Assembly (NCBI RefSeq): GCF_000027125.1
Contig: NC_017626.1
Length of the DNA: 64,000 nt
Direction: 5' to 3' (one strand)
Origin: Escherichia coli 042
Lineage (GTDB): Bacteria; Pseudomonadota; Gammaproteobacteria; Enterobacterales; Enterobacteriaceae
Every line of letters starts with the position of its first letter. The first letter of the stretch is position 1. Positions 557 through 51,554 of the stretch are shown here, in pieces. A program made the position numbers and the translations under genes. The notes under the pieces are model-generated. The model was not told the origin of the DNA, did no database searches, and saw only the letters and a program-made list of their open reading frames with translations.

Positions 557-560
557 TGGA

Positions 561-776
561 TTACTCTCCTCTCGCAGCCTTACGCCTGTCTTCTTTAATC
601 TTGAAATAAAGATTTGTCAGATACGTCAGCAGGCCAAAAACCAGGCTACCCAGCACACCGATTGCAGCCCACTGTGACGGAGTTACTTTATCGAGTAACT
701 GCAATGCCCAGAAACCAGCATTACCCGCCGATGTGCCATAGGCAACACCTGTTGTTAACTTATCCATTGATTTCAT
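561..776 (-). CDS. essQ: Phage 21 S-type holin homologue (71 aa from MKSMDKL)
   Basis: ORF 561..851 trimmed to ATG 776..774. Two hydrophobic segments and a charged C-terminus; lies upstream of ydfR/lysozyme. Confidence 0.8.
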
Positions 777-995
777 ATCCTCACCCCGATGTACACGGAT
801 GGTGCAATATGTTTGAAAAGATCGGAGTCTACGGGGTAGTTTTGACAGCACACGTTGTTCTCAACGGCGCTAAAAAAACATACACATTAAAAATGTGGGT
901 AATTATTTTGAAAGAAAGTCATATATAAAATAATAATACGAGAAATGTTTTCATATTTAGTGTACTGTATACGGCCATTTATACAGGAAAAGCCT

Positions 996-1166
996 ATGTC
1001 AGAACGTAAAAACTCAAAATCACGCCGTAATTATCTCGTTAAATGTTCCTGCCCAAACTGCACCCAAGAGTCAGAACACAGTTTTTCAAGAGTACAAAAA
1101 GGTGCCCTTTTGATCTGCCCTCATTGCAACAAAGTATTCCAGACAAATCTTAAAGCTGTAGCCTGA
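996..1166 (+). CDS. Small zinc-ribbon protein (56 aa, CxxC...CxxC); possibly the K-12 Qin small protein ynfU
   Basis: ORF 945..1166 trimmed to ATG 996 behind AGGAA. Sequence MSERKNSKSRRNYLVKCSCPNCTQ...ICPHCNKVF has two CxxC pairs. Confidence 0.55.
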   Translation: MSERKNSKSRRNYLVKCSCPNCTQESEHSFSRVQKGALLICPHCNKVFQTNLKAVA

Positions 1167-1529
1167 TTGATTTTATTAGTAACAAGTATTTTTTATATTT
1201 TAATAATATATTTAAAGCAGATAATAAAAAACCCGCCTGAGCGGGTTTGAGATTGTGGTGCTTTTTGTGGGAGTCATCCACTTACGCACTTTGTTTTGCC
1301 ATGCCAGCAGTTAGCTTCTGCTGTAAAACTATTCATGCAGCAAACCTGCACTTCACCACAATGGTTAGCATACTTTTCCTGATTAAGATTTTGCCAAATA
1401 TGCTAGCCATTGTTTCATGTATTGGACCTCCTTACTTTTTATTAAAGAGATCCAATATTCACTACTCTGTCCGTATCTCTACTCAGGCATCAGCCTTCTT
1501 CGTTATCGTATACAGACGAGCGATGAATT

Positions 1530-1745
1530 TTAATCAGTAATGATGACATTTGCTGCTGCAGGACCTTTAGCACCACTCTCTATAGAGAAGGTAACCTTTT
1601 GACCTTCAAATAAGGTTCGATAATTATCATTCTGAATCGCAGAAAAATGCACAAACACATCTTTACTACCATCAACAGGAGAAATAAAGCCGAAACCTTT
1701 ATCAGCGTTAAACCATTTTACTAAACCAGTCATTTTATTTGACAT
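1530..1745 (-). CDS. cspB: Cold-shock protein CspB
   Basis: [23 protein letters not shown]... is a full-length CSD protein with the RNP1 motif KGFGFI. Confidence 0.9.
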
Positions 1746-2045
1746 TCTACATTCCTTAACTTGAGCCTTTCGGCATAAATGGTTTGCATAACAGAAACGA
1801 CTTCGTACTTAATTGGAGAGACTCAAAGAAGGAATAAGTGAATAACACCTGAAATGAGAACTGCTTTAGTAAACTACTTCGTATATCGTCTGTTCTTCAA
1901 ACCGACGCAATCATTAACGCATAGTTGAACATATGAAGCAATGTTTATTTTAGACATCCAGCCATCTTCAACCCCATCAAAAAACTATAGCTTTCTTCAG
2001 GAACGTGTGTATAGTGCGCCAAGTTATCAGTATTAAGGAATTTTT

Positions 2046-2258
2046 TTGTCCCGTAAAATGACAGGAATTGTCAAAACCTTTGACGGCAAAAGCGGCAAGG
2101 GTCTTATCACCCCATCCGATGGTCGTATCGATGTCCAGCTTCATGTTTCAGCGCTCAATCTCCGCGATGCAGAAGAAATTACCACCGGATTACGCGTGGA
2201 ATTTTGCCGGATAAATGGTCTGCGTGGCCCTTCAGCTGCCAATGTTTACCTTTCATGA
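2046..2258 (+). CDS. cspF: Cold-shock-like protein (CspF by synteny)
   Basis: [23 protein letters not shown]... is a CSD family member, divergent from cspB as in Qin. Confidence 0.75.
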
Positions 2259-2312
2259 GCTATATTAAAGCTTTAATTTCAGGCCCCATCGGATCACACA
2301 TGGAGAGTTTTT

Positions 2313-2402
2313 ATGAATAACCCCGTCTGTCTTGATGACTGGTTGATTGGCTTTAAAAGCTTATGCTGTACTTTGGCCGTAATAGCTCTGCTAATAATAT
2401 AA
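2313..2402 (+). CDS. Candidate 29-aa hydrophobic peptide
   Basis: GGAGAG RBS 6 nt before ATG 2313. [29 protein letters not shown], stop TAA 2400-2402. Too short for the ORF track. Confidence 0.25.
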
Positions 2403-2679
2403 TAAGCAGACTCATTGTGTTTAGGGACATTGTACTGGAAGAAAACATTTTAAACATCAGGCAAATAACCAAGTCACCAGCTAAATAATAAGTTAACAGA
2501 CATGAGTCCCGGGATGAGATTCAACATTACCATTGCCCCATTTAAAGCACAAAACCCGCTCATCAGCGGGTTTTCTACTTTTTCTTAACGTCGGGTATAC
2601 AAAGCCCATCGTTGAAAAAATTTTATCCATATTTTTTGAAAAATGCAAACATCATGTCGCCATCTTCAGCAAAAATCAT

Positions 2680-3432
2680 TTATCTCGTCACCTTCCTCAA
2701 TTGCGCTTCCGCGTATGCTTCTTCCTGCCAGCACTTTGTTACCAGTTTACCAATGACGTCCGCATACCCCTTATACCACTGATAATCGGTCAGGTCTGGT
2801 ACCAGCTTCTGGACATGACGTCGTGCCAGCGTGGTCGGTAAACGACTAAACCGGTTTCCATTACAACGCCCACAAATCTTATATACCGGTACGCCATGAA
2901 ACCGGGTTCTTTTTTCATCCAGAACAATCCCTTTACCCTTACACCCTCTGCACGCTGTGCTGGCTTCGCCCTTACCATGGCAATGCTGACATAGTTCCTT
3001 CACCCATTCTTCCTTGATTACAGATTCCCCGCGTCTGTAGTGTTTCACCACTTCGCGCAATACATTATAAAATCCCGTACCTGAACAATGCTCACAGCGA
3101 GCCTTACTTGCCGCAGACCTGGAGTAATCAGCAAAGGCAAAACTCACGAGGTAAGGAATAATCTGTAACCGGATTTCTTCACTCAATTTGTTCAATGTCG
3201 GGTTATCCAGTGCCATCGCGTAATTTAGCAGGCCTTCAATCGCAAACTGAGGGTCCTGAACACCAACTTTTGCCAGAAATAAGGCCAACCCAAGTGGTGC
3301 TTTCGACTGCACCATCCCCTGCGCTGCCATTACATCCGTAATTGTTAAACAACCGGTGCCTGTCGCTGGAGCGTCATCGCTCAATTTTGGAGATTTTGGG
3401 GAGTAATATTTTGGTAAGGCTTCAAGGTTCAT
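2680..3432 (-). CDS. quuQ: Late-gene antiterminator Q homologue (250 aa from MNLEALPKYY)
   Basis: ORF 2680..3462 trimmed. Multiple CxxC zinc motifs (CEHCSGTG, CQHCHGKG, CRGCKGKG, CGRCNG) typical of this Q family. Confidence 0.85.
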   Translation of the reverse strand: MNLEALPKYYSPKSPKLSDDAPATGTGCLTITDVMAAQGMVQSKAPLGLALFLAKVGVQDPQFAIEGLLNYAMALDNPTLNKLSEEIRLQIIPYLVSFAFADYSRSAASKARCEHCSGTGFYNVLREVVKHYRRGESVIKEEWVKELCQHCHGKGEASTACRGCKGKGIVLDEKRTRFHGVPVYKICGRCNGNRFSRLPTTLARRHVQKLVPDLTDYQWYKGYADVIGKLVTKCWQEEAYAEAQLRKVTR

Positions 3433-40383: not shown

Positions 40384-40530
40384 ATGGCAAAGCCGATCAT
40401 CACGCTCAATGGCCTAAAAATCGTCATTATGTTGGGAATGCTGGTCATTATTCTCTGCGGTATCCGTTTTGCCGCCGAGATCATCGTGCCGTTTATTCTC
40501 GCATTATTTATTGCTGTTATATATAACTAA
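40384..40530 (+). pseudogene. tqsA: tqsA (AI-2 exporter, ydgG) 5' fragment: 46 native codons then 2 element-derived codons and TAA
   Basis: ATG 40384. [46 protein letters not shown] then YN-stop. The reading frame resumes at 51547. Confidence 0.9.
40512..40520 (+). repeat. attL core (TGCTGTTAT; flanking similarity ...TAAC)
   Basis: ATTGCTGTTATaTaTAAC at the left junction versus AATGCTGTTATtCtTAAC at the right junction. Confidence 0.8.
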
Positions 40531-40594
40531 TTTCACTTAACGCATTGATTTAATTAAATGATTTGCACTACAAAAAGTGCCATAAATCGCAAAA

Positions 40595-40616
40595 TGACTA
40601 CACCAGTGACTACACC
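40595..40616 (+). repeat. Tandem TGACTACACC x2 (arm-type integrase site candidate), left arm
   Basis: TGACTACACCAGTGACTACACC is identical to 51396-51417. Similarity continues for ~35 more bp (..TCGgTGCAC.., ..ACAACGTGgAACA..). Confidence 0.6.
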
Positions 40617-40934
40617 GTTCGGTGCACTGTATGAAACAACGTGGAACAAATAGACACAAGAAATATACAGGCGGGTCATCTTTCCAGGGGGAAGCGCGCT
40701 AATTCATGAGGGGCGTTAATGTTGATATGGGGATCCCCATAACGGGGCTACCGGATTTTTTTTCCGGTTAACTGTTAATCAGGCTGGTGGGCTTTACCTG
40801 TTTTGTAGGAGTGGTCATTATGACCATTCAGACAATGACCTTAATCAGAACTTTTCGCTAAAAAATGACGTTGGTCACGTCGTCCGGAAAGCACAAAATC
40901 CCGTCAATTTTTAATTAACGGTTAAACCGTCTTT

Positions 40935-40980
40935 TGTCACGGCGTGTCACTGGTTGTCACTCTCCGTCACGGTATGTCGC
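40935..40980 (+). repeat. Five TGTCAC-type hexamers at exact 10-bp phasing
   Basis: TGTCAC 40935, TGTCAC 40945, TGTCAC 40955, CGTCAC 40965, TGTCGC 40975. Lies directly 3' of the 93-aa gene. Confidence 0.7.
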
Positions 40981-40986
40981 TACTCG

Positions 40987-41268
40987 TTAACGCCGTAACC
41001 GCTCCGGCTTCTTCCAGTGGTACGTAATTTTCTCCGTTTCCCGATACAGTGCCACGCGGCGATTGTAGGCCAGCATTTCAAGAACGCGGATCCGTATGTT
41101 GCGCATATCCACATCATTAAGCTGGATACCATCACGGCGCATCACCTCAGCAACCACACGCGCGTAATTTTCGGCGGTCACGCTGTCCGGCTGCGTGGCC
41201 TGTTCGTCATGCTGCTGGCTGATTCCGGTAACGCGGCGGATTAATCCCAGTAGTTCGGCTTCTGTCAT
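40987..41268 (-). CDS. Hypothetical island protein (93 aa)
   Basis: ORF 40987..41466 trimmed to ATG 41268 behind a GGGGG RBS. The upstream part of the long ORF is just translation of the cos repeat. MTEAELLGLIRRVTGISQQHDEQATQPDSVTAENYARVVAEVMRRDGIQLNDVDMRNIRIRVLEMLAYNRRVALYRETEKITYHWKKPERLRR. Confidence 0.55.
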   Translation of the reverse strand: MTEAELLGLIRRVTGISQQHDEQATQPDSVTAENYARVVAEVMRRDGIQLNDVDMRNIRIRVLEMLAYNRRVALYRETEKITYHWKKPERLRR

Positions 41269-41301
41269 TGTGCCCCCATCGCTCTGATAGTCTGGTGTCG
41301 T

Positions 41302-41365
41302 CGGGTCCTTCCTGGAATTATGGCCCGTTACGGGGCGGCGACCTCGCGCGTTTTCACTATTTATG
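41302..41365 (+). other. Lambda-type cos site, copy 1 (cosN GGGCGGCGACCT at 41333-41344)
   Basis: CGGGTCCTTCCTGGAATTATGGCCCGTTACG|GGGCGGCGACCT|CGCGCGTTTTCACTATTTATG. This closely matches the recalled lambda right end ..GTTACG, the 12-nt cohesive end, and left-end nt 13-33. Confidence 0.8.
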
Positions 41366-41382
41366 AAAATTTTTCGGGATCC

Positions 41383-41479
41383 ATGTCCGGTTTCTCTGCA
41401 AGTTAACCATATGAAAAATATAAAAACATGCTTTCCATGAACCGGACATGCGCAAAAAACAGACACTAAAACCGGACAT
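41383..41479. promoter_or_regulatory. cosB-like array: three copies of ATGTCCGGTT (one forward, two inverted) around an AT-rich spacer
   Basis: ATGTCCGGTT 41383-41392; AACCGGACAT 41440-41449 and 41470-41479. AT-rich 41397-41430 sits between the first and second. Confidence 0.6.
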
Positions 41480-41547
41480 CGAACCAGTTAACCGAAAGTG
41501 TGCACAAATCACATGCATTGCTGCGAGTGATTAACAAGTTATCGGCT

Positions 41548-41982
41548 TTACTGTTCTGTATCGGCTGATTGCTCCATGCTGGCACGGCGAACGCTTATGG
41601 CATGACGCCACCCAGCCAGAAAGCCAGCCATTTTATTTCGTGCCTTGCTCACATCTTCCGGTGAATAGCCGTAAATCTGCAAACCTTCATCAAATCGATG
41701 TTCTGTTTCTTCACTGGAGTACTCGTCACGCTCAGATGAAAGCAGCCTGGCAAACATAATTTTTTCCAGCGCACTGGTTTCTACGTGATATCTGATGGTC
41801 TCAAGACGGCTTTTACCTGAAGACCAAAGCAATGTATGCCCGATGTGATAACCGCCAGACTTTCCGCGATCCGCATTAAGATACGGCATCCCCTGTTTGG
41901 TCCATGCGCGAATAGTGGTTCTGTTAACCTTGAAATGTTCAGCTATTTCCTGCTGACTTACAAAACAAGCTTTATCAATCAT
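41548..41982 (-). CDS. Nu1-like small-terminase-type DNA-binding protein (144 aa): N-terminal winged HTH, unrelated C-terminus
   Basis: FVSQQEIAEHFKVNRTTIRAWTKQGMPYL aligns by eye with lambda Nu1 VNKKQLADIFGASIRTIQNWQEQGMPVL. The gene starts ~70 bp from cos copy 2, as Nu1 follows cos in lambda. Confidence 0.7.
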   Translation of the reverse strand: MIDKACFVSQQEIAEHFKVNRTTIRAWTKQGMPYLNADRGKSGGYHIGHTLLWSSGKSRLETIRYHVETSALEKIMFARLLSSERDEYSSEETEHRFDEGLQIYGYSPEDVSKARNKMAGFLAGWRHAISVRRASMEQSADTEQ

Positions 41983-42050
41983 AATGTTACCTTAACTGCA
42001 TGGTTAAATATTAATCAAGTGGTGGTGGTGTCACCTTCACGGAAAAACGT

Positions 42051-42114
42051 CATAAATAGCGAAAACCCGCGAGGTCGCCGCCCCGTAACGGGCCATAATT
42101 CCAGGAAGGACCCG
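42051..42114 (-). other. Lambda-type cos site, copy 2, inverted (cosN complement AGGTCGCCGCCC at 42072-42083)
   Basis: The reverse complement is identical to copy 1 except 2 positions. Its CGCGGGTTTTCGCTATTTATGA matches the recalled lambda left end exactly. Confidence 0.8.
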
Positions 42115-42115
42115 T

Positions 42116-42138
42116 AAAAAAGCCGGATTTCTCCGGCC
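42116..42138 (-). terminator. Rho-independent terminator of the capsid operon
   Basis: Minus strand GCCGGA-GAAA-TCCGGC followed by TTTTTT. Same module at 44389-44410 and 44751-44773. Confidence 0.7.
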
Positions 42139-42143
42139 TTGTC

Positions 42144-42557
42144 TCAGATGTTTTTCAGTATGCGATCGATGTCGCCGTCATCGCCCTGGTTTCTGCCATC
42201 GTATGCCATGCCAGCTGATACGGCTTGCGGGCTGTGCATGTCCATAAAGTTTTCAAAGGCTGCGGTAAGTTCCGGCGCAACCTTCGGACGTTCCTGCTCT
42301 ATGGTCATGCTAAGGATGCTTTTAGCCGTACCAACATCGATACAAGGCACGTTTGCCATTGCACGCAACAGCGGCTGATAGTCTTTATGCTCATGAAGCG
42401 CCATAATCGCATCAGCGCGCGGCTTGTCCTGCTCTTCCAGTTTGTTTAGTTGATGTACGGCCTCATAGGTTGATAAACCTCTGTCAGCCATTGCCCGCGC
42501 TTCGACTTTAAATTTACTCGCCAGCGGTAGCGTCATGATGCTTTCATTCGTTGCCAT
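42144..42557 (-). CDS. Hypothetical island morphogenesis-operon protein (137 aa)
   Basis: Last gene of the capsid operon. MATNESIMTLPLASKFKVEARAMADRGLSTYEAVHQLNKLEEQDKPRADAIMALHEHKDY... No family recognised. Confidence 0.6.
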   Translation of the reverse strand: MATNESIMTLPLASKFKVEARAMADRGLSTYEAVHQLNKLEEQDKPRADAIMALHEHKDYQPLLRAMANVPCIDVGTAKSILSMTIEQERPKVAPELTAAFENFMDMHSPQAVSAGMAYDGRNQGDDGDIDRILKNI

Positions 42558-42569
42558 CGTTCCCCCTGC

Positions 42570-42905
42570 TTATCGGGCCAGCGGCTGAACGGATACGCCG
42601 GAACCCGCAAAGGCGGCGCATTTTTTCGCATCGGTGTCGACGCTCTCAGGCCAGTTAACGGCGGCAATATTGAATATCCCCGTCTTGTAACACTGTGCTG
42701 ATTTCTGCTTTGACGTGTCCACAGGGTACGAGGTCAGATAAACAGCCTTGCCAGATTCCTGACCATCCCACGGCTTAAACTCGCCATTGTCTGCCAGCAT
42801 CAGCGGGGTAAATTCCTGAATAACGCCAGCATCAGCGGCAAAATGTACCAACGTCGTGGATACCTGCTGACTGCCTGCAAATAACTCAATGTATGGAGTG
42901 TCCAT
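42570..42905 (-). CDS. Head decoration protein, lambda gpD family (111 aa)
   Basis: TPLMLADNGEFKPWDG..., YKTGIFNIAAVNWPE..., KKCAAFAGSGVSVQP parallel lambda gpD TPLMLDTSSRKLVAWDG, YKSGTFRYEDVLWPE, KKRTAFAGTAISIV (recalled). Confidence 0.8.
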   Translation of the reverse strand: MDTPYIELFAGSQQVSTTLVHFAADAGVIQEFTPLMLADNGEFKPWDGQESGKAVYLTSYPVDTSKQKSAQCYKTGIFNIAAVNWPESVDTDAKKCAAFAGSGVSVQPLAR

Positions 42906-42917
42906 AGAATCCCCCCG

Positions 42918-43973
42918 TTAACCAATTTTGACGGTAACAAATTTGCGAATATCTGCCGGTACCGGCTGCGGTGCACTGTGTGTCTGCACGTACTCAATCG
43001 CCGGATCGCCGTCCTCAATCCAGTTTTTCGGGTAAAACATGTTTTGTGTTGCGCCCGTTCTTACCGCTTCCTGATCCATTATCGCACCATAGGCCACCAG
43101 CCCTTTATTGTTGGTGTTACCCAGGACCAGCAAATCAGGCTCAAGGAAATATTTTTCGGTACCATCGCTGTCAGTGTATTTGCCGGAATAGACGATAAGG
43201 GCCAGATCACCAAGATAGCCTTTAAAGCTCACCACTTCGCCCAGGTTTTTACAGGCCAGTTCGGCGGCGGATTCTGAACCACGGGAAAGATCGTACAGCT
43301 CACGGAATTTTTTAAAGCTGCGTAATGTGCGCCATACCTCAGCGCCCATAATCATGACGTTTGCGGGGCAACCAGCCTGATCAGCATAAAGCTCGATGTC
43401 ATAGATTGGGTCGTGCATGTCTTTATCCTGCTCGGACCATTTTTTACCCTTGGCCTGCTCTATGATGCAGTTTTCCGGTATTTTCCAGTCGATTTCATAG
43501 CGTTCTATGCCTTCGCCCTCAATGATGTTTTTTCCGGTCGTTACCGCATTCACCGCCAGCCATTCCACGCGTGCCTTAATGGCGTTTATCTGGCGGCGCA
43601 TGTTGCCAGTAATCAGGCGCATACGGCGATAGGTAGGGTCGTTAAGCTGTGCCGGATCTTCTCCAGCCATGCGCATGATGGTTTTCGTTGGATCGATTTC
43701 GTGCTTTGGCTTCATGTAGCCAGGTTTGATTGTGCTGGTTTCGTACCCTTTATCGCGCTGAACCTGGCTACCCACCATAGGCGAACAAAACGCCGACATG
43801 GTGACTTCTTCAATGTCCAGGGTATCCAGCATGATGTTTTGCGTGCTGAATGTCGCCACGTTCGGGAAAAACAGCGTGGTAAACAGAGGGCTGAATTTAA
43901 AATCCGCAATATCCCCGCGATTCAGGTACATGAAAAGCTGGTTAGTGTTAAGTGCCGTTGCTTTGCCTGCCAT
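42918..43973 (-). CDS. Major capsid protein, lambda gpE family (351 aa)
   Basis: Blocks PGYMKPKHEIDP, DPTYRRMRLI, YSGKYTDSDG..KYFL, LVLGNTNNKGL.AYG, YPKNWIEDGDPA, SAP align with lambda gpE PGYVKPKHEVNP, DPAYRRRRII, YSGQYVENGVKKNFL, MVLGNTQARGLRTYG, YPKNWVTTGDPA, SAP (recalled). Confidence 0.9.
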   Translation of the reverse strand: MAGKATALNTNQLFMYLNRGDIADFKFSPLFTTLFFPNVATFSTQNIMLDTLDIEEVTMSAFCSPMVGSQVQRDKGYETSTIKPGYMKPKHEIDPTKTIMRMAGEDPAQLNDPTYRRMRLITGNMRRQINAIKARVEWLAVNAVTTGKNIIEGEGIERYEIDWKIPENCIIEQAKGKKWSEQDKDMHDPIYDIELYADQAGCPANVMIMGAEVWRTLRSFKKFRELYDLSRGSESAAELACKNLGEVVSFKGYLGDLALIVYSGKYTDSDGTEKYFLEPDLLVLGNTNNKGLVAYGAIMDQEAVRTGATQNMFYPKNWIEDGDPAIEYVQTHSAPQPVPADIRKFVTVKIG

Positions 43974-44179
43974 TATTCACCCCCATAATTTTTATGCATC
44001 CCAAGCGCCGCAAGTAAATAAGAGCGTACAAGTGAACCTATCGACGGCTCCGGCGTCATCAGCGGATCCAGTCCAGCCGCAACGCCAGCTTCATAGTTTT
44101 TTTTGTGGCGCTGCTTGAGCACCTCCACGATTTCGGGGCTTATGTACACCGAAACACCGCCTTTTTTCTCTTCAGCCAT
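43973..44179 (-). CDS. Hypothetical protein, first gene of the capsid operon (68 aa)
   Basis: ORF 43973..44212 trimmed to ATG 44179 (AGGAA RBS); TAATG overlap with the capsid gene. MAEEKKGGVSVYISPEIVEVLKQRHKKNYEAGVAAGLDPLMTPEPSIGSLVRSYLLAALGMHKNYGGE. Confidence 0.55.
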   Translation of the reverse strand: MAEEKKGGVSVYISPEIVEVLKQRHKKNYEAGVAAGLDPLMTPEPSIGSLVRSYLLAALGMHKNYGGE

Positions 44180-44235
44180 AGTAAGAAATTCCTCTTCGAC
44201 TAAAAAAATCATAACTGGATGTTTATCCAGTTATG

Positions 44236-44263
44236 ATTATAATCAGAATTGCATTTTATGCAA
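44236..44263 (-). promoter_or_regulatory. Sigma70-type promoter of the capsid operon (TTGCAT-16 nt-TATAAT)
   Basis: -35 at 44263..44258, -10 at 44241..44236 on the minus strand. The -35 lies inside the palindrome ATTGCAT-TTT-ATGCAAT (44248-44264). Confidence 0.5.
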
Positions 44264-44340
44264 TGATATTGAGTTATGTTGCAAATTATGAAATGATTAT
44301 CCCGATCACGAACGCCAGTGCATCCAAAAACCTCATATGC

Positions 44341-44382
44341 AAAAGCCCGATAAGAACCCTCTGACCTTATCGGGCTTTTTTT
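44341..44382. terminator. Bidirectional terminator hairpin
   Basis: AAAA-GCCCGATAAG-(11 nt)-CTTATCGGGC-TTTTTTT. Confidence 0.6.
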
Positions 44383-44388
44383 GGGCGC

Positions 44389-44410
44389 AAAAAAGCCGGA
44401 TTGCTCCGGC
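44389..44410 (-). terminator. Rho-independent terminator (copy of the GCCGGA..TCCGGC module) after the 74-aa gene
   Basis: Minus strand GCCGGAGCAATCCGGC + TTTTTT. Confidence 0.65.
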
Positions 44411-44430
44411 TATGTGTGCTGTGTGCTGGC

Positions 44431-44655
44431 TCAGTCTCTGATCTCTTTCAGAAATTCTATCAATGCATCTATCTGTTCAGGATTTACCGCCAGCATTTCA
44501 CCGGATAGAGCACATCTCACAAAACCATGCTGATCCTTTTCAATCAGTGCGCCCGTCTCCAGGAATGCGCGGTAATCATTGATGCTCATCGTCTCCATGT
44601 TGTCAGCATGGTATTTATCACGCTGTTTTAATATCTCATCAAATTTCATCGGCAT
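44431..44655 (-). CDS. Hypothetical island protein (74 aa), stand-alone cassette between two terminators
   Basis: GAGGA RBS. MPMKFDEILKQRDKYHADNMETMSINDYRAFLETGALIEKDQHGFVRCALSGEMLAVNPEQIDALIEFLKEIRD. Confidence 0.55.
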   Translation of the reverse strand: MPMKFDEILKQRDKYHADNMETMSINDYRAFLETGALIEKDQHGFVRCALSGEMLAVNPEQIDALIEFLKEIRD

Positions 44656-44750
44656 TGTTTTTTTCCTCTGTTGTGTCTGTTTGTTTCAGATAGTAACTAT
44701 GCCTGACCGTGACGAAAACCCGGTAATGCGCCATACCGTTTCAACTGGTG

Positions 44751-44773
44751 CAAAAAAAGCCGGATTTCTCCGG
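44751..44773 (-). terminator. Rho-independent terminator after the PerC-like gene
   Basis: Minus strand GCCGGAGAAATCCGGC + TTTTTTT. Confidence 0.7.
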
Positions 44774-44781
44774 CTGTTTGA

Positions 44782-45054
44782 TTAGCTGTCCTGGTAATTG
44801 CGCCATATTTCATCACCAGCACCATCTATACCCATTTCGGCATAAGTGCGATCGACTGCCTTTTTCAGGTCTCCGAAATTATCCGGCGGCTCCGGTGCCC
44901 TCTGTGCCTTCCTTGAACATTCCAGCCGTCGCATCGTGATGTGATGCCGTTCCTTGTCTGTCTCCACCAGCTGCATGACTTCACCCCATCGCGCCGCCGC
45001 CCTCCGGTAAAAGCCTTTCGCCTCCAGTTCCTCCGCTATGCGGTCATGTACCAT
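44782..45054 (-). CDS. PerC/Pch-family transcriptional activator (90 aa)
   Basis: ORF 44782..45174 trimmed to ATG 45054 behind GAGGGGG. MVHDRIAEELEAKGFYRRAAARWGEVMQLVETDKERHHITMRRLEC... parallels the PerC/Pch core ..LEEAGLWRRAATRWL.V....TDEERDWI.RRR..C (recalled). Confidence 0.7.
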   Translation of the reverse strand: MVHDRIAEELEAKGFYRRAAARWGEVMQLVETDKERHHITMRRLECSRKAQRAPEPPDNFGDLKKAVDRTYAEMGIDGAGDEIWRNYQDS

Positions 45055-45064
45055 CGTCACCCCC

Positions 45065-45475
45065 TCAGAACGAAATATCATCACCGTAAGGGTCATCGCC
45101 TCCCGCTGGTGGCTGATTACCCTGTGTGCCTGTGGTTTTGCGTCTGTTCCCGCCTGGACGTGCCGCGCGGGCACTGATTACGCTGTCTGCGATAACCTGC
45201 CAGCCCTGCCGCGTTTCTCCGTTCTGTCCGGTCCACTGGCTTACCTGCATCGTGCCGGATACGCTGGCAACATCGCCTTTTTGATGTTTAGCCAGGAAGT
45301 CGGCCTGTTTGCCAAATGCGATGACCGATAACCATAACGTCGCCTGTCCGTCCTGTGCCTGGCTGCATGGCAAAGATACCGCCATACGCGCCAGCGTCAT
45401 CGGTGTGCCCTTGCTGGTCTGTTTTACCTGCGGGTCGTCCACCAGCCGCCCGTAAGCGGCTATCTGTGCCGTCAT
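45065..45475 (-). CDS. ssb: Single-stranded DNA-binding protein (OB fold, Gly/Pro-rich linker, acidic tip DDISF)
   Basis: MTAQIAAYGRLVDDPQVKQTSKGTPMTLARMAV...GNQPPAGGDDPYGDDISF. The C-terminal tip resembles the SSB DDDIPF client-binding tail. Confidence 0.75.
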   Translation of the reverse strand: MTAQIAAYGRLVDDPQVKQTSKGTPMTLARMAVSLPCSQAQDGQATLWLSVIAFGKQADFLAKHQKGDVASVSGTMQVSQWTGQNGETRQGWQVIADSVISARAARPGGNRRKTTGTQGNQPPAGGDDPYGDDISF

Positions 45476-45723
45476 AATTCCACCTCTCCGGTTTTAACGT
45501 TGATGGTTGTTACCTGTTCCGCTTCGGCAATCTCCCGTTCTGTCAGCGTGGCAAAGTTTGCCGCCGCCGTGGTCATGAATGCGCTTATCAGGTCGGGATG
45601 TTCCTTCGCGTATCCTTCCCGCGTGTGGCGGTCTATCGTTCTGATTGCCACCTTTAAGGTGTGCTCAGTCATGTCTAACGCTTTATATTTTGGCTCTGTT
45701 CTGTCTCTGCGTTTTTGGGTCAT
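45472..45723 (-). CDS. Hypothetical island protein (83 aa; start uncertain)
   Basis: ORF 45472..45753 trimmed to ATG 45723 (GAGAGG RBS). ATGA-type overlap with the ssb start. Confidence 0.45.
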   Translation of the reverse strand: MTQKRRDRTEPKYKALDMTEHTLKVAIRTIDRHTREGYAKEHPDLISAFMTTAAANFATLTEREIAEAEQVTTINVKTGEVEL

Positions 45724-45734
45724 TTCTCGCAACC

Positions 45735-45925
45735 TCTCACTTTTTCGCCTCACTTTTTCAAGCGTCTCACTTCGTCGCAGTTGGGATTTTCGGTTTTTCT
45801 ATGTGTGTGTTTCATAAGTATTTTTTTACCCCTCACTTTTGAGGATGTATACAGGTCGAAAAGTGAGGGAGAGCGGGCTAATTTTGGCCCTCTTTCTATC
45901 CCCCTCGCTTTTGCTCCTCACTTTT
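45735..45925. repeat. Iteron cluster CTCACTTTT (6 direct or near-direct copies plus 1 inverted): putative island replication origin
   Basis: Direct copies at 45736, 45749, 45766 (CTCACTTCG), 45832, 45904 (CTCGCTTTT), 45917. Inverted copy at 45858-45869. AT-rich stretch 45781-45830. Directly 3' of the rep gene. Confidence 0.65.
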
Positions 45926-47324
45926 ATAGCGGCGCTACATCATCCCCATCGATACGAATAACCCCATCTTTTTCCAGCTTGTACAGCCAGCGCCGGAAGT
46001 TTTTCATTTCATACCCCAGCTTTTTCATGTCATCACGTAACAGCGGGATCGTGCACTTGTCGCCGTTCTGTGTGCGTGAACGGATGCACCCCCATAGCGC
46101 GGTATGGTTTTCCGTCTTGTTCCCTGCCTCCTCGATGCGCTCCAGTTCAACAGGAGGGCGCGGATCATCCACCACCACCAGCGACGTGATTAATTCACCG
46201 TCAGCGTCGGTAAAAAGCTCCACCACGCGTAAGTCATATGCGGCTTCTTTGAGTTCCTCCGCGTCCTTCATTTTGGTGCATGAGATAACCAGCGCTTCGC
46301 TTCCTGCGTCCTCCCTGCGTATCCGGTATTCAGCATCCAGCGAAGCACGAAATGCACTGGAACCGCGCGCGCCTTTCGTCTCATCCTTGCCGGAATGGTG
46401 AACCACCAGCACCGTGGCCCCTGTGCGTCGTTTCAGTTCGTCACAACCACGGATAAACGCCCCCATATCACGGGAATCATTTTCATCATTCCCACCAAAG
46501 CAACGCGCCAGCGTATCCAGAATAATCATGCGTACAGGTTTACCCGTTTCCCGCTCCACCTGACGGGCAGCGATAACCATTTCATCAACATCAAGCGGGG
46601 CAGCCGGAAAGATGGGGCGGTTTACCAGATACAGATTTTTCACCTGCTCATCGTGCACAACCTCCCAGGCTTTTACACGACGCGGAACACCTATACCGCC
46701 TTCACCAACCACATAGAGAACCGCACCATGTGCAACCCTGCGGCCTCCCCACTGGCGACCAGTGGCAACATGGCACGCCCACGATCCAGCAAGGAATGAT
46801 TTATAGGACCCGCTAGCCCCGTATATGCTGCATAGCGATACCGCCGGAATAATCCCCTTAACCACGTAATCCAGTTGCGTGTCGTATCCGGTAGATCCAA
46901 CGCTCATCGGTAGCGTGGTTTTTCGCTGGTGTTTTTTTTCTTCCGCCGGCTCTTTCCCGCGCACCCGTTCCAGGTATTCGCGCCAGTTCTCCCGCATATG
47001 GCTGTGCATCCCTTCGGGGTAATAATTCGCATCAGTTACACCCGCCGCCGCCAGCTTGTGCGCAATGGCATTAATATTTGATGGCCTGATGTGGCCTGCC
47101 TTGTACAGCCGGACACAATAGCGCCCCTCGTCGATGATTCTCAGGTCTGCCAGTTCATCCAGTTGATCATCAGCCAGCACAACGGGAGGCACATTATCGC
47201 CAGCCAGTCGCCCGTCCTGTTCCTGCCACTGTTTCGCATGTGCCCAGGCATCACTACCCGCAAAAATAATGACTTCGGTCATCTTGTCGTAAGGCTGTTT
47301 TTTTAAGTTCGGTGCGCTTTTCAT
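45924..47324 (-). CDS. Replication initiator ATPase (RecA/RepA-like AAA_25-type core, C-terminal wHTH), 466 aa
   Basis: Walker A GASGSYKS, Walker B MIILDTLARCFGG, VLVVHHSGKDETKGARGSSA sensor region. C-terminal basic wHTH-like tail. Confidence 0.8.
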   Translation of the reverse strand: MKSAPNLKKQPYDKMTEVIIFAGSDAWAHAKQWQEQDGRLAGDNVPPVVLADDQLDELADLRIIDEGRYCVRLYKAGHIRPSNINAIAHKLAAAGVTDANYYPEGMHSHMRENWREYLERVRGKEPAEEKKHQRKTTLPMSVGSTGYDTQLDYVVKGIIPAVSLCSIYGASGSYKSFLAGSWACHVATGRQWGGRRVAHGAVLYVVGEGGIGVPRRVKAWEVVHDEQVKNLYLVNRPIFPAAPLDVDEMVIAARQVERETGKPVRMIILDTLARCFGGNDENDSRDMGAFIRGCDELKRRTGATVLVVHHSGKDETKGARGSSAFRASLDAEYRIRREDAGSEALVISCTKMKDAEELKEAAYDLRVVELFTDADGELITSLVVVDDPRPPVELERIEEAGNKTENHTALWGCIRSRTQNGDKCTIPLLRDDMKKLGYEMKNFRRWLYKLEKDGVIRIDGDDVAPL

Positions 47325-47620
47325 TTCTTGCCCCTGAATCCGTTAACCATGGTTTTCAGCTTCTGGATGTTTGCCCGTGCCCTGGCGTTGCTGGTGGGCA
47401 CGTTATGCGGCGCGGTCTGTACCAGAGAAAAATCACGCCGGAACTGATAAACAGGCATCACGCAATCATATTCGTAACCTTCACGGCGGTAGGTTACGCG
47501 CCGTTCTTCCACGTCCTTAATCATTACCGTGCCGCCGTACTGGTCGCGGTAAATATCACCGCGCGTAAATTTAGGGTGAGTGTTGCCACTGGCAGTTAAG
47601 CCAGAATATTTAAGTTTCAT
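47321..47620 (-). CDS. DUF4222-like small protein (99 aa)
   Basis: ..GDIYRDQYGGTVMIKDVEERRVTYRREGYEYDCVMPVYQFRRDFSLV resembles the DUF4222 pattern as I recall it. ATGA overlap with rep. Confidence 0.5.
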   Translation of the reverse strand: MKLKYSGLTASGNTHPKFTRGDIYRDQYGGTVMIKDVEERRVTYRREGYEYDCVMPVYQFRRDFSLVQTAPHNVPTSNARARANIQKLKTMVNGFRGKK

Positions 47621-47625
47621 TATTT

Positions 47626-47859
47626 TTATTCTCCGGTGTGCTGTTCTTTATATCTGTCGTGCAATAGATCTATTTCTTGCAGTTCCATTATTACAGGCTC
47701 AAGAAGCGTTATTAATGCTGTGGCAATTCTTGATTTTTGTTTGTCGCGTTCATTGTCGCCAAGTGTTTCAAGCCATATGCGCAATATTTCCATCATGTTT
47801 TCACTGTGAGAAAGTGCAAGAAATGCGCGGTCTATTGTTTGGTGGTAAATATCACGCAT
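47626..47859 (-). CDS. Hypothetical island protein (77 aa)
   Basis: MRDIYHQTIDRAFLALSHSENMMEILRIWLETLGDNERDKQKSRIATALITLLEPVIMELQEIDLLHDRYKEQHTGE; helical, overlaps the upstream gene by 8 nt. Confidence 0.5.
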   Translation of the reverse strand: MRDIYHQTIDRAFLALSHSENMMEILRIWLETLGDNERDKQKSRIATALITLLEPVIMELQEIDLLHDRYKEQHTGE

Positions 47860-48319
47860 GGCTTACATCCTCAGGAAATTTTCTTCTATAACGCGCCTCT
47901 GCCACATATTCCGCATAATCGGCGGCGATATTCAGTACATCAAGCCCCGTTGATTTATATTCTCTCGTGGAAAGTAAGAAAAAAGCCGCTCTAATAAGTT
48001 CTGGCATTGACGAAAGCGCATCAGCCGCATCATCAGGAACGCCGGAAAATTCCTGTTTCAGGGAATTAAAACGATCATCACGCATAACCCCCCCCCCATT
48101 TTCACAATCAGCAATCAGGATAGCTTTGGCCTCATTCAGCGCCGTATCAGCACTAAATTGCATGACAGCCAGTGAGTGAGGAACGAAAGCACCGGCATAT
48201 TCTGTTTCGCTGGTGGCGTGCTTATGTGCCCTGTCCGCGATAACAGAAATATCAATCAGCGCGTGCATCAGCGTTTTGATGGCTTCGGCGGCTGCGTCCG
48301 GTGTGGTTTTATTGTGCAT
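47852..48319 (-). CDS. Hypothetical island protein (155 aa)
   Basis: MHNKTTPDAAAEAIKTLMHALIDISVIADRAHKHATSETEYAGAFVPHSLAVMQF... No family recognised; part of the tightly packed early operon. Confidence 0.55.
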   Translation of the reverse strand: MHNKTTPDAAAEAIKTLMHALIDISVIADRAHKHATSETEYAGAFVPHSLAVMQFSADTALNEAKAILIADCENGGGVMRDDRFNSLKQEFSGVPDDAADALSSMPELIRAAFFLLSTREYKSTGLDVLNIAADYAEYVAEARYRRKFPEDVSHA

Positions 48320-48521
48320 AAAGCATCCCCTGAATATTCGTGTTAATCATTCCGGCACGTTTTGTGATTTCCTGTAATGATTCCCTTGTGGCGACAATTG
48401 CTTCATCTGGTAAGTGGTAATTACACACCACGCGACCTTTATCCACATTGACCAGTAGCTGCCCTGTGAATTTCTCACGAAACTGAATGCGGTTAAGGTC
48501 AGTAAGTGACAGATTAATCAT
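48309..48521 (-). CDS. Hypothetical island protein (70 aa)
   Basis: ORF 48309..48563 trimmed to ATG 48521 behind AGGAGG. MINLSLTDLNRIQFREKFTGQLLVNVDKGRVVCNYHLPDEAIVATRESLQEITKRAGMINTNIQGMLYAQ. Confidence 0.5.
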   Translation of the reverse strand: MINLSLTDLNRIQFREKFTGQLLVNVDKGRVVCNYHLPDEAIVATRESLQEITKRAGMINTNIQGMLYAQ

Positions 48522-48711
48522 GGCGCACCTCCTGACGAATACGGGCGGCAAATACAGCAACACAACCGGACGGGCAACGGTTACGCGCTTCGCGTTCCGT
48601 CCAGGCGGTTACGTGGATGATTTGAGATTCTCCGGCACTCAGTGCCAGAAAACGCCACACAAAGGCCGTTTGTGTGTGTACAAGGTGTGGTATATGATTT
48701 ACAGCAACCAT
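48514..48711 (-). CDS. Small protein resembling Icd-like host cell-division inhibitors of P4-type elements (65 aa); tentative
   Basis: ORF 48514..48786 trimmed to ATG 48711 behind AGGAG. ..FVWRFLALSAGESQIIHVTAWTEREARNRCPSGCVAVFAARI fits my recollection of the F.W.F.A....V.A..E.EAR......FAAR pattern. Confidence 0.4.
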   Translation of the reverse strand: MVAVNHIPHLVHTQTAFVWRFLALSAGESQIIHVTAWTEREARNRCPSGCVAVFAARIRQEVRHD

Positions 48712-48784
48712 AACGGCTCCTAGTTTACGTTGTTGGTTAGAAGCCCTGCGAGTGGTAACGACACTTGCGGGGCTTTGTCTTTTC
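48703..48784 (+). ncRNA. Candidate ~80-nt antisense RNA across the RBS/start of the first early gene
   Basis: Extended -10 TGgTATATG (48688-48696) upstream. Then a 14-bp stem (48741-48754 / 48762-48775, two G-U pairs only on the plus-strand RNA) followed by TGTCTTTTC. Confidence 0.3.
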
Positions 48785-48802
48785 ATCGATTACCTTGATA
48801 AA

Positions 48803-48884
48803 GGTGTCAGCCACTATATTAGTAACGGGTGTCAGCCACGTCAATAGTGTTTTTCCGTTTTCTTGTGTGTATACTGTCAGCCAC
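48803..48884. promoter_or_regulatory. Divergent switch region: three GTCAGCCAC operators interleaved with face-to-face promoters
   Basis: GGTGTCAGCCAC at 48803-48814 and 48828-48839; CTGTCAGCCAC at 48874-48884. Minus-strand promoter TTGACG (48844..48839)-17 nt-TAATAT (48821..48816). Plus-strand TATACT at 48870-48875. Confidence 0.6.
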
Positions 48885-48905
48885 CTAATAACGAGGAAAT
48901 CAGAT

Positions 48906-49085
48906 ATGGCAACAAAAGCAGTTAATGCAAAATCCAAAAAGCTTGAGGCTCGAGTACCACACGCAATAGCTGATGCTGTAGAAAATTTAAAGGAAGATGG
49001 CGAAAGTACAGGGCAATTTATCGTTTCGGCACTTGAAGGCGAGATCAAACGCCGCCAGCGCCGCAAGGCCAAAGAATCAGAATAA
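48906..49085 (+). CDS. Ribbon-helix-helix-like small DNA-binding protein (59 aa): candidate island repressor
   Basis: ORF 48765..49085 trimmed to ATG 48906 behind AGGAA. MATKAVNAKSKKLEARVPHAIADAVENLKEDGESTGQFIVSALEGEIKRRQRRKAKESE has a beta-strand/helix/helix pattern typical of Arc/CopG proteins. Confidence 0.55.
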   Translation: MATKAVNAKSKKLEARVPHAIADAVENLKEDGESTGQFIVSALEGEIKRRQRRKAKESE

Positions 49086-49127
49086 TCACTATCAGCGCCG
49101 TGGTGTGAGGTATTACGGCGCATTGCT

Positions 49128-49316
49128 ATGCAGGACAACACAATGACCGATAAAGAATTGACCAAAACATTATCACCGGCACGGAAAAGACGGCGCAGAA
49201 AGATAGAGCATGAATCAGAAAGATTCGCACCATGTGCTTTTGCCCTTGAGCAATTCCTTAAAGAGTACAGGGAAAAGCGCTCATTGCAGGTATGGCAACG
49301 AACTGAACCAGACTGA
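49128..49316 (+). CDS. Possible second small gene of the plus-strand unit (62 aa, basic)
   Basis: ORF-track MQDNTMTDKELTKTLSPARKRRRRKIEHESERFAPCAFALEQFLKEYREKRSLQVWQRTEPD. Weak RBS, so may instead be non-coding. Confidence 0.3.
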   Translation: MQDNTMTDKELTKTLSPARKRRRRKIEHESERFAPCAFALEQFLKEYREKRSLQVWQRTEPD

Positions 49317-49411
49317 TTGCATTGCCCACCAGCCTGATAGCGGCTATCATCCCCGTGCTTATGTTTGGGATCACACACACAAACGGCGCAGCGGGTTATC
49401 TGTTCAGAAAG

Positions 49412-49439
49412 GCGGCTCCATTTCGGGGCCGCTTTTTTT
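49412..49439 (+). terminator. Rho-independent terminator of the plus-strand unit
   Basis: GCGGCTCC-ATTTC-GGGGCCGC followed by TTTTTTT. Confidence 0.65.
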
Positions 49440-49585
49440 ATACCTGAAAAACCCCAATTTTGTTGTTTTTCAGTTTCACCAGGGCGAACGAATCCCCGCC
49501 CACGTTCTGGCGTATATTCAATCTTCATGGTTATAGCTCTGTGTTCAGATGATTGATGTGTGGCGGCTGCGTGCCGCCAGCGTGA

Positions 49586-49774
49586 TTAATGAACTGCCTT
49601 GCAGCTATCCTTCCAGGCCAGAACCTCGGATAAAGACCAGCCAACGGAACGACCGCCAAGTTTACGACGTGATGGGAATTGTCCGGCCTTTTCCAGGCGG
49701 TAGCGACACGTACGGCTAAGGCCGGTTAGTTTTTCGCATTCTTTTTCACGTATAAACCGATCAGTGCTTAACAC
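49586..49774 (-). CDS. alpA: AlpA-family HTH regulator/excisionase (62 aa, GTG start)
   Basis: Strong GGGGGGG RBS. ..DRFIREKECEKLTGLSRTCRYRLEKAGQFPSRRKLGGRSVGWSLSEVLAWKD is the AlpA/MerR-like HTH signature. Confidence 0.85.
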   Translation of the reverse strand: MLSTDRFIREKECEKLTGLSRTCRYRLEKAGQFPSRRKLGGRSVGWSLSEVLAWKDSCKAVH

Positions 49775-50107
49775 TATTGCCCCCCCTTTCGTTTCTTAAA
49801 GAGTCATCAGGTGTCTTATTGTGTCGTATTGTTCCCGCTAGAGTGATGAATGGCAAATATTGAGGATGTATGATTTACAGAAAATGAAACAGTAAGAATA
49901 AAATCTTTTAAATTCATGTTAATACAAAGGCATAAAATATTGTTTCATGCCTTTTTTCTCGCTCTTTAAAGAGTGATTCGCTAGTGTATAAAAAACCAGT
50001 GACACATTAAAAATCAGCCACTTATAAATCTGTATGCTTTTTCGCCTCTTGTTCGTGGTTGTTCCACATTGTTGCTCATTGTTGCACGTTGTATCTGTTC
50101 GCATATA

Positions 50108-50123
50108 CAGTATGCGCATACTG
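50108..50123. promoter_or_regulatory. Perfect 16-bp palindrome CAGTATGCGCATACTG just 3' of int
   Basis: No loop, so more likely a protein-binding site than an RNA hairpin. Adjacent ATTGTTGC direct repeats at 50068-50087. Confidence 0.4.
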
Positions 50124-50140
50124 AAAAAACACGAAAAAAA

Positions 50141-51370
50141 TTATTTTCTTCTGGCTACTGGTAGCGTGGTTACGTTTTCATGTGTTCCCGCCAGTATCCC
50201 TAACCGCTCCGTCCACATATCCAGCGCATTGCGTTTAGCATCCAGATAACGGGAATGATTATAAACTCGCTGCATTCCTGGCATCTGGTGGCCTGTAAGC
50301 TGCTCCACGACATGCGGATCAACGCCTAAATCGTTCAGCATGGTTGTAAAGGTGCGCCGGATGTCATGCAGTGACCAGTGAGGATGATTAAGCCTCCTGT
50401 GCGCTAATCTTCCATACTGCGATACGCTGGCCTCCTGTTTCACTTCCCCCAGCAATAAGCCCGTGTGCCTGTTCTGCTCCACCAGCTGCGTGACGAACGG
50501 CAGGATCGCTTCCGGTATGGGCCGGAATATTGCGACCTTCGTTTTGCTGTGCTCCTTCGGAACGGTCCATAGCATTTCCGTAAAATCCCACTCCCCGATC
50601 TCCGATAACCTCAGTTCTACCGTTCTGGCTCCGAAGACAATCAGGAGGCGGATTAACGCGACGTAGTAAGGGGAGAATATTTTTTTGTCCAGTGCCTGCA
50701 ATAATTCGCCAAGTTCTTTGTTACTTAAGACACGTTCGCTTATATCCGGTTTTTTCCCAACGTCCGCCACGTTCAGATCGTCCAGAACGTTGCTGATTGC
50801 ATAGCGCCGCCTACGGCAGAACTTAAGCGCCTGTTTGCACGCCTGTAGCACGAATCCGGCAGTAACAGGCGTTCGCTTTGCCACCTGGTCAAAACAGGCC
50901 AGCCAGTGCCGTAGCTCGCATTTATCCAGCGGCATAGCACCAATCTGCTGTATTACGTGATTATTAAGTCGCCTTTTCAGGGCGATATAATCCACGCGGT
51001 TTTCCTTTACGTAATACTCAAGCCAGTAGGTGAGCGCATCGCCAACCGTTACCGGCTTTAACGCTTCCTGTACGGTGTAATTAAGCTCATGACGTGGATT
51101 TTTCCCCTCTGCCAGCCATGCGCGACACTGGGCGGCTTTTTCCCTGGCTGATTTCAGGCTCAGATCAGGATAACTTCCCAGCTTAATGCGTTCGGGTCGT
51201 GTCTCCCTTCCCGTTCCGGCCCTGTATGTGAAATACCAGGTCAATTTCCCTGATGTTAAATATTTCACGCTCAGGTTTCCGCCATCACTATAAAACGTGT
51301 TTTTCTCCGCTGGCTTACCATGAAGTTTCCTTAGCAAGGTATCGCTCAGTTTGTTCATTGCTCTGCTCAC
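50141..51370 (-). CDS. int: P4-type tyrosine integrase (DUF4102 arm-binding N-terminus), 409 aa, GTG start behind GAGGGGG
   Basis: N-terminus ..LSDTLLRKLHGKPAEKNTFYSDGGNLSVKYLTSGKLTWYFTYR... Catalytic ARTVELRLSE (R), HDIRRTFTT (H..R), GHQMPGMQRVYNHSRY (H..Y). Confidence 0.9.
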   Translation of the reverse strand: MSRAMNKLSDTLLRKLHGKPAEKNTFYSDGGNLSVKYLTSGKLTWYFTYRAGTGRETRPERIKLGSYPDLSLKSAREKAAQCRAWLAEGKNPRHELNYTVQEALKPVTVGDALTYWLEYYVKENRVDYIALKRRLNNHVIQQIGAMPLDKCELRHWLACFDQVAKRTPVTAGFVLQACKQALKFCRRRRYAISNVLDDLNVADVGKKPDISERVLSNKELGELLQALDKKIFSPYYVALIRLLIVFGARTVELRLSEIGEWDFTEMLWTVPKEHSKTKVAIFRPIPEAILPFVTQLVEQNRHTGLLLGEVKQEASVSQYGRLAHRRLNHPHWSLHDIRRTFTTMLNDLGVDPHVVEQLTGHQMPGMQRVYNHSRYLDAKRNALDMWTERLGILAGTHENVTTLPVARRK

Positions 51371-51395
51371 GTTTTACCCCCTCTTTACGAAAAAG

Positions 51396-51417
51396 TGACT
51401 ACACCAGTGACTACACC
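51396..51417 (+). repeat. Tandem TGACTACACC x2 (arm-type site candidate), right arm, just upstream of int
   Basis: Identical to 40595-40616. Confidence 0.6.
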
Positions 51418-51545
51418 GATCGTTGCACAAAGGGCTACAACGTGAAACAAGCTGGAACAAGGAAAATCACAAATCTGTTGATAATCAAAAACATAATGCA
51501 CAGCCTGAAACATTATGAAACAGCAAAAAACACCAAATGATAAAA

Positions 51546-51554
51546 TGCTGTTAT
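51546..51554 (+). repeat. attR core (TGCTGTTAT)
   Basis: Direct repeat of 40512-40520. The tqsA reading frame resumes as [14 protein letters not shown]. Confidence 0.8.

Follow-up and report, generated by a model that had tools for sequence, protein, structure and literature searches.

The origins closest to the one described here are those of phage-inducible chromosomal islands (PICIs). The Gram-negative PICIs of one study all share a single origin organization, and four allelic variants of the initiator occur in E. coli (Fillol-Salom et al. 2018, ISME J, PMC6092414). The rep-ori region of EcCICFT073 drove plasmid maintenance in pKO3-blue, and it is the only Gram-negative PICI origin so tested (PMC6092414). 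The SaPI ori lies directly downstream of rep and contains 6 to 12 short iterons, arranged in two sets with a central AT-rich region (PMC9371898). SaPI Rep is a self-loading initiator-helicase whose C-terminal winged helix recognizes these iterons (Ubeda et al. 2007, 2012; Qiao et al. 2022, PMC9371898).

We analyzed a stretch of 64,000 nucleotides of Escherichia coli 042 (the window), in which an earlier note, made from the letters alone, had pointed out a cluster of short repeats beside a rep gene and had called it a putative island origin. The cluster resembles the Gram-negative PICI origins in lying at the same spot 3' of the initiator gene, in having two iteron sets that flank an AT-rich tract and in belonging to the same type of island. 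The note had regarded this layout as the established one for SaPI/PICI origins, and here the literature agrees, for Gram-negative PICIs (PMC6092414) as well as for SaPIs (PMC9371898). The cf-PICI paper on EcCIEDL933, an island different from that of the window, makes no mention of an ori.

Results

The window carries a PICI of about 11.0 kb in tqsA (40512..51554, minus strand). Direct repeats of ATAACAGCA mark both of its ends; they start at 40512 and 51546, lie 11.0 kb apart and are inside tqsA. The same att core is found in the tqsA PICIs EcCI042 and EcCIK1516 (PMC6092414 Table S1). Among the island's genes are int (50141-51370), whose product has integrase Pfam matches, alpA (49586-49774) and perC (44782-45066, minus strand). 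The genes for DUF4222, RepA, SSB, PerC and the capsid-E-like and head-decoration-like proteins are all on the minus strand, and the gene order of the island is that of EcCICFT073 and EcCIRM12579. PICIs are recognized by a size of about 8 to 15 kb together with a specific att site between direct repeats and a terminal gene for a tyrosine integrase; by a unidirectional order of int, alpA, replication and interference/packaging genes without a full phage structural and lysis set; and by a helper cos site. We found each of these in the island.

Between alpA and the small-ORF cluster, RefSeq annotates a truncated pseudogene for an "Icd-like cell division inhibitor" in the near-identical O157 island (L005:17463-18056); the window has a 263-aa ORF in this region (48737-49528, minus strand).

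The rep gene (45924..47324, minus strand) encodes a 466-aa initiator-helicase that RefSeq names "helicase RepA family protein." Its start is overlapped by the end of a DUF4222 gene (47321..47620, minus strand), which forms the conserved left border of a swappable rep-ori cassette. At its other end, the repeat cluster fills the 200-bp gap between the rep stop and the next gene. Searching the window, we found four exact plus-strand copies of CTCACTTTT, at 45736, 45749, 45832 and 45917, exactly where the earlier note had listed direct copies. Its two variants, CTCACTTCG at 45766 and CTCGCTTTT at 45904, are also present, as is its inverted copy, which occupies 45859-45867 or, taken as CCCTCACTTTTC on the minus strand, 45858-45869. 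The note had placed the copies between the rep stop and the next gene, and this is their position, except that the first copy overlaps the stop codon itself (45924-45926). It had further attributed an ORF at 45715..46401 to the repeats. That ORF exists and is 687 nt long, yet the repeats cover only its first ~210 nt, and some 475 nt of it simply run antisense to rep.

The CTCACTTTT 9-mer occurs six times in the 64-kb window against an expectation of 0.52 (standard deviation, 0.73), and none of 100 shuffled windows held six or more copies. The shuffles thus rule out chance or low complexity as the cause of the repeats. Five of the six copies in the window are packed into 190 bp. The 7-mer AAGTGAG has 10 matches in the window, six of which are in the cluster; a search for this 7-mer found none elsewhere in the island. 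Since the genes run on the minus strand, we write the unit in gene sense, as AAAAGTGAG(G). A regular-expression scan returned eight iteron sites, of which one is inverted and the other seven are in gene sense. The 30%-GC tract separates them into four near rep and four beyond it. Two of the eight are GCGAG variants, and the third rep-proximal (left-arm) iteron of the relatives is degenerate in the window.

Reading away from rep, iteron 1 (AAAAGTGAGGA in gene sense; 45915..45925, minus strand) is the site at the stop codon, and the relatives have it at an offset of +2..+6. Iteron 2, the variant AAAAGCGAGGG (45902..45912, minus strand), lies at the conserved offset +15..+19. Iteron 3, which reads AAAAGTGAGGG on the plus strand (45859..45869), is the sole inverted copy, and nearly all relatives have an inverted copy at +55..+59. 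Iteron 4, AAAAGTGAGGG (45830..45840, minus strand; conserved offset, +85..+91), is the last site before the AT-rich tract. Iterons 3 and 4 make up a perfect 11-bp inverted repeat with 18 nt between the arms. Alignments revealed a motif other than the iterons, CCTGTATACA (45846..45855, minus strand), between the inverted copy and the next direct one; as (C)TGTATA(T/C)A it is kept in every iteron class, in genera from Escherichia through to Pectobacterium. The motif, which forms the center of the 11-bp inverted repeat, could be a nucleation point for melting, a -10-like element or a host-factor site.

A putative DNA-unwinding element follows, the AT-rich tract at 45781..45829. The earlier note had the copies surround an AT-rich tract at 45781-45830, and so they do: the GC content is 0.30 at 45780-45829, compared with about 0.55 to 0.62 in the flanking genes. 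Beyond the tract lie iteron 5, the variant CGAAGTGAGAC (45764..45774, minus strand; offset in relatives, about +146..+158), iteron 6, AAAAGTGAGGC (45747..45757, minus strand; conserved offset, about +170..+174), and iteron 7, AAAAGTGAGAG (45734..45744, minus strand; conserved offset, about +183..+187). Iteron 7 overlaps the sequence GAGAGG a few bases upstream of the start of the next gene, which we read as a Shine-Dalgarno-like site. A degenerate eighth site, GGTTGCGAGAA (45724..45734, minus strand), is found at offset +197, where the relatives have GTGAGGA or GTGGGGA.

The next gene (45472..45723, minus strand; ATG at 45723) encodes an 83-aa hypothetical protein and is followed by the SSB gene (45065-45475, minus strand). 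The O157 island and EcCICFT073 have this pair behind their ori too, whereas different genes occupy the place in other relatives. We searched 45690-45940 for DnaA boxes and the IHF consensus, allowing up to one mismatch for each, and for GATC and primase signals, and found none of these. That there is no DnaA box, IHF site or GATC fits a self-sufficient initiator-helicase.

How far is this arrangement shared? Our comparison set comprised three diverged E. coli relatives, 80 Enterobacterales loci (one genome per species) and 12 loci of chosen homologues, with the rep ORFs located by coordinates. The origin layout was kept at fixed offsets from the rep stop in almost all of these loci, about 90 in number, and the genera concerned include Escherichia, Salmonella, Klebsiella, Xenorhabdus, Pectobacterium, Serratia and Morganella. 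The conserved order begins with direct iterons at about +2, +15 and +25, an inverted iteron at about +57, the (C)TGTATA(T/C)A motif and a direct iteron at about +87; it continues with an AT-rich stretch and then three or four direct iterons from +146 to +197. Averaged over all loci, the GC content is 0.30 to 0.35 at +95 to +135 from the rep stop. The columns of the iteron core had a majority fraction of 0.88 in 14 E. coli/Salmonella-type loci, compared with 0.73 in the rest of the gap, and this higher conservation holds despite one core base that switches.

One record in the comparison, CP018459.1 (L100), is a circular molecule of 16,971 bp that was deposited as the Klebsiella plasmid pKp_Goe_795-4. 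It encodes an integrase and capsid, head-tail adaptor, terminase and tape-measure proteins, the genes of a capsid-forming satellite, and it has a RepA of the Ser type described below, together with GTGCGGCA iterons spaced as in the other loci. This RepA gene is the only one in L100 with an annotated role in replication. Because it combines satellite genes, a Ser-type RepA and iterons at these offsets, L100 is probably an excised island and not a plasmid. The same may be true of NZ_CP148328.1 (10,790 bp).

We next describe the protein. Rep is made up of an N-terminal domain (aa 1 to ~125), a RepA/AAA_25 core with a RecA fold (aa 148 to 315) and a predicted C-terminal winged helix (aa ~400 to 466). 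The Pfam AAA_25 match to aa 148 to 315 is strong (E = 2.3e-43; 148.5 bits versus a cut-off of 27), and RSF1010 RepA (1g8y) is both the only related solved structure and the best PDB sequence match to Rep. A Pfam search gave nothing meaningful for either the first 131 aa or the last 72 aa. Foldseek with the full-length Rep model (pLDDT 65.6) gave weak matches only, mostly to RecA-type proteins (RadA, Rad51, KaiC and T7 gp4) along with unrelated proteins, and was uninformative on the C-terminal domain.

For aa 400 to 466 (coding region 45927..46127, minus strand), AF2 models predict three helices followed by a beta-hairpin (H-H-H-beta-beta) with pLDDT values of 83 to 94. Residue N442 (codon AAC, 45999-46001) sits just before helix 3 of this predicted winged helix. 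Submitted alone, the C-terminal domain drew Foldseek matches that were all winged-helix proteins, including PcaR, DtxR/IdeR and the winged-helix domains of MCM4 and MCM8, at TM scores of 0.55 to 0.79 and with E-values that are weak, as expected for 72 residues. The DtxR/IdeR structures among these matches are DNA-bound.

The N-terminal ~125 aa of Rep (46950-47324, minus strand) are 62% identical to the N terminus of the EcCICFT073 Pri-Rep (L004:5493-5870), and DNA matches of 77 to 85% extend to initiators annotated as "DUF927" and "DNA primase family." The domain has no Pfam family, and its predicted alpha/beta fold is a confident one. The EcCICFT073 initiator and the window Rep have only these ~125 aa in common. 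Since this N-domain is common to otherwise unrelated initiators, PICI initiators look like chimeras, in which a shared N-domain is combined with exchangeable motor, DNA-binding and iteron cassettes.

Which part of Rep follows the iterons? The iteron core, GTGNG, differs between lineages, and within one locus all copies change together. We observed that core base 4 tracks the Rep residue just before an F-x-R-W-L-x-K-L segment near the C terminus, which is N442 in the window. Counting loci, many of which are related so that the independent events number perhaps 6 to 10, we found Asn with GTGAG in 32 of 32, Ser with GTGCG in 7 of 7, His with GTGGG in 13 of 14, Lys with GTGGG in 34 of 36 and Gly with (G/A)TGCG in the one locus of its kind. 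The E. coli loci L088 and L002 provide a near-isogenic contrast: the last 72 residues of their Reps differ only by N442H, and their iterons read GTGAGG and GTGGGG, respectively, at every site. There are four such contrasts in E. coli/Salmonella, this pair included, and all agree. The N-terminal domain does not track specificity. That of L002 is near the window's, yet the iterons differ; that of L003 is far from that of L002, yet the iteron core is identical.

Two loci, L094 and L096, combine an Asn-type Rep with mixed GTGAG/GTGGG origins. The rep-proximal arm of L094 (2907-3130) has GTGAGG and most of its distal arm GTGGGGA, while both arms of L096 (2916-3140) are mixed. These origins suggest either recombination inside the origin or relaxed recognition.

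Taken most simply, the co-variation and the modeled fold would mean that the iterons are read by the winged helix, with residue 442 in contact with core base 4. We lean slightly toward the broader proposal that residue 442 sets specificity, that N/H switches yield orthogonal replicons and that the initiators are chimeric. The pattern proposed for base 4, in which Asn would call for A, His or Lys for G and Ser or Gly for C, is part of this proposal and is held with the same slight preference.

Perhaps the sites serve transcription instead? They could be operators in a promoter region for the hypothetical, SSB, PerC and packaging genes, with Rep or another regulator as the transcription factor. 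Such a role would suit a cluster that takes up the 200 bp before the next gene, whose last iteron overlaps the Shine-Dalgarno-like GAGAGG and whose conserved TGTATA(T/C)A resembles a -10 element. However, a consensus scan of both strands of 45300-46300 detected no sigma-70-like promoter, and eight sites spread over 200 bp on either side of an AT-rich tract have the layout of an origin, not of an operator. Moreover, the protein that co-varies with the sites is a helicase, and the analogous region of EcCICFT073 is needed for plasmid maintenance. Hence, we consider it improbable that the cluster is an operator region, although a secondary regulatory role of an origin is possible.

We wondered if the cluster might be the remnant of an origin, decayed or inactive, with repeats that once bound Rep. 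Its two GCGAG variants, the degenerate third left-arm site and the weak eighth site would be in keeping with decay. The rest of the module argues against this: rep is intact, and 366 complete E. coli genomes contain the 2-kb rep-ori segment at an identity of at least 99%, with two integration sites among them. These chromosomal sites are tqsA, as in the window, and phoQ-roxA, and the module is 99.7 to 99.9% identical between them; the phoQ-roxA islands that carry it are those of O157:H7, O55:H7 and strain 95-3192 (L005, L006 and L087 in our comparison). The named PICI EcCIRM12579 (PMC6092414) shares the rep-ori sequence as well. Over rep, the ori and the next gene, it differs from the window by 3 nt in 1853 nt, all of them outside the iterons. 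We conclude that a decayed origin is highly improbable. O157 and O26 genomes have two to four matching places each.

The remainder of the island is less well conserved. Relative to EcCIRM12579, its integrase end is only about 95% identical and its far end about 91%. Given these divergent ends and the occurrence of the module at two sites, the islands are mosaics.

The 11-bp inverted repeat (45830-45840 / 45859-45869) might matter in its own right, as a hairpin in RNA or single-stranded DNA that terminates transcription, is a site of processing or signals single-strand initiation, with the other copies being incidental. Its 11-nt arms are perfectly complementary, and the relatives keep the inverted pair with both arms changing together. 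This joint change is equally well explained if both arms are sites of one protein, however, and a hairpin leaves the six further direct copies unexplained. The stem is not followed by a T-run on either strand, and a scan of the gap for intrinsic terminators detected none on the strand that is transcribed. The single-strand folding energy of the gap is not unusual (z = -1.33), and Rfam returned only sub-threshold noise for the origin region (SprD at 19.8 bits versus a gathering score of 100). A hairpin function of this kind is scarcely credible.

Finally, nothing more than its being a repeat-rich non-coding region speaks for the cluster as the site, cos or pac, from which the island is packaged, and this is excluded by exact copies of the lambda-type cosN 12-mer GGGCGGCGACCT that lie 4 kb away, at 41333-41344 (plus strand) and 42072-42083 (minus strand). 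The two cosN copies are in opposite orientation near the capsid-like end of the island; EcCICFT073 has likewise been described with two cos sites.

Discussion

We conclude that the repeat cluster is very probably the vegetative replication origin (ori) of the phage-inducible chromosomal island in tqsA. It is comparison that supports an origin, through the layout, the co-variation and the genomic context. The enrichment of the repeats, the confidently predicted winged helix, the exchange of the cassette for another helicase and other iterons in EcCICFT073, the near identity to EcCIRM12579 and the circular L100 record speak for it as well. The suggestion of a putative island origin in the earlier note thus gains support from a layout conserved in about 90 loci, from the co-varying residue and from a cosN that lies elsewhere. 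Specific binding of the iterons by the cognate Rep has strong, if indirect, support in the co-variation of residue 442 and the predicted winged helix.

For this origin, we infer Rep binding, melting of the AT-rich tract, self-loading and the source of the primer. Upon induction and excision, Rep, as a hexameric helicase of the RepA/RecA-fold type, would use its C-terminal winged helix to bind the eight iterons, AAAAGTGAG(G), and N442, where the recognition helix begins, would read the A of GTGAG. The duplex would then melt at the ~50-bp AT-rich tract between the two iteron sets. The same Rep would load itself there as the replicative helicase, and the island SSB, encoded two genes downstream, would coat the single strands.

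An origin of this type, and this very rep-ori module, are already known, having been published for the island family in 2018; the finding is therefore an ordinary one. Its parts are now fixed to the base, and a reading of raw sequence had located a satellite origin correctly. Beyond the known biology there are two further leads, both modest: the residue-to-base rule and the chimeric make-up of the initiators. According to this rule, one amino acid of the initiator would predict one base in all iterons, across Enterobacterales. If it is true, an N442H mutant should switch its origin preference, related islands that differ by an N/H switch could coexist in one E. coli cell, and PICIs that share a cell but not an iteron type should replicate independently of one another.

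How does the window origin compare with known systems? The alpha protein of satellite phage P4 is similar in being a satellite-encoded initiator-helicase with a C-terminal DNA-binding domain that acts on short repeats. It differs in combining a primase with an SF3 helicase. The type I iterons of P4 are TGTTCACC, and its repeats are divided between two loci set apart from each other, ori and crr, and are not directly 3' of the gene.

Iteron plasmids such as pPS10, F, RK2 and R6K also use a winged-helix domain to read direct iterons beside an AT-rich unwinding element. Their initiators, however, have no helicase role of their own and require DnaA boxes as well as host DnaB/DnaC, whereas 45690-45940 in the window is without a DnaA box or an IHF site.

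RSF1010 and the IncQ plasmids offer the closest solved relative of the helicase core (1g8y), and they too have direct iterons beside an AT-rich segment. A separate protein, RepC, recognizes the origin of IncQ plasmids, and a dedicated primase, RepB', acts at ssi sites. In the window Rep, by contrast, the winged helix is fused to the helicase, and we found no ssi-like hairpins or primase gene next to rep.

The SaPIs have in common with the window an ori 3' of rep, two iteron sets, an AT-rich center and, as predicted for the window Rep, a C-terminal winged helix. The two iteron sets of a SaPI face opposite ways. Those of the window do not: seven of the eight iterons have one orientation, the one inverted copy is rep-proximal and the distal set is all direct. 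The description of Gram-negative PICIs does not demand opposite directions. The motor of SaPI Rep belongs to AAA+ superfamily 3 and that of the window Rep has a RecA fold related to RSF1010 RepA, so the two motors are not homologous. The window element would thus operate in the manner of SaPI and PICI origins, while its family is that of the Gram-negative PICIs.

EcCICFT073 has an analogous layout at the same place, with a D5_N/DUF5906/Pox_D5 (SF3-type) initiator and GGTAGAC/GGTAGAT iterons; the window, unlike it, has a RepA/AAA_25 RecA-fold motor and AAAAGTGAG(G) iterons. Because the two initiators share only their N-terminal ~125 residues, the EcCICFT073 experiment validates the design and not the window allele. 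With a RecA-fold motor here and SF3-type motors in the SaPIs and EcCICFT073, one origin design serves helicases that are not homologous.
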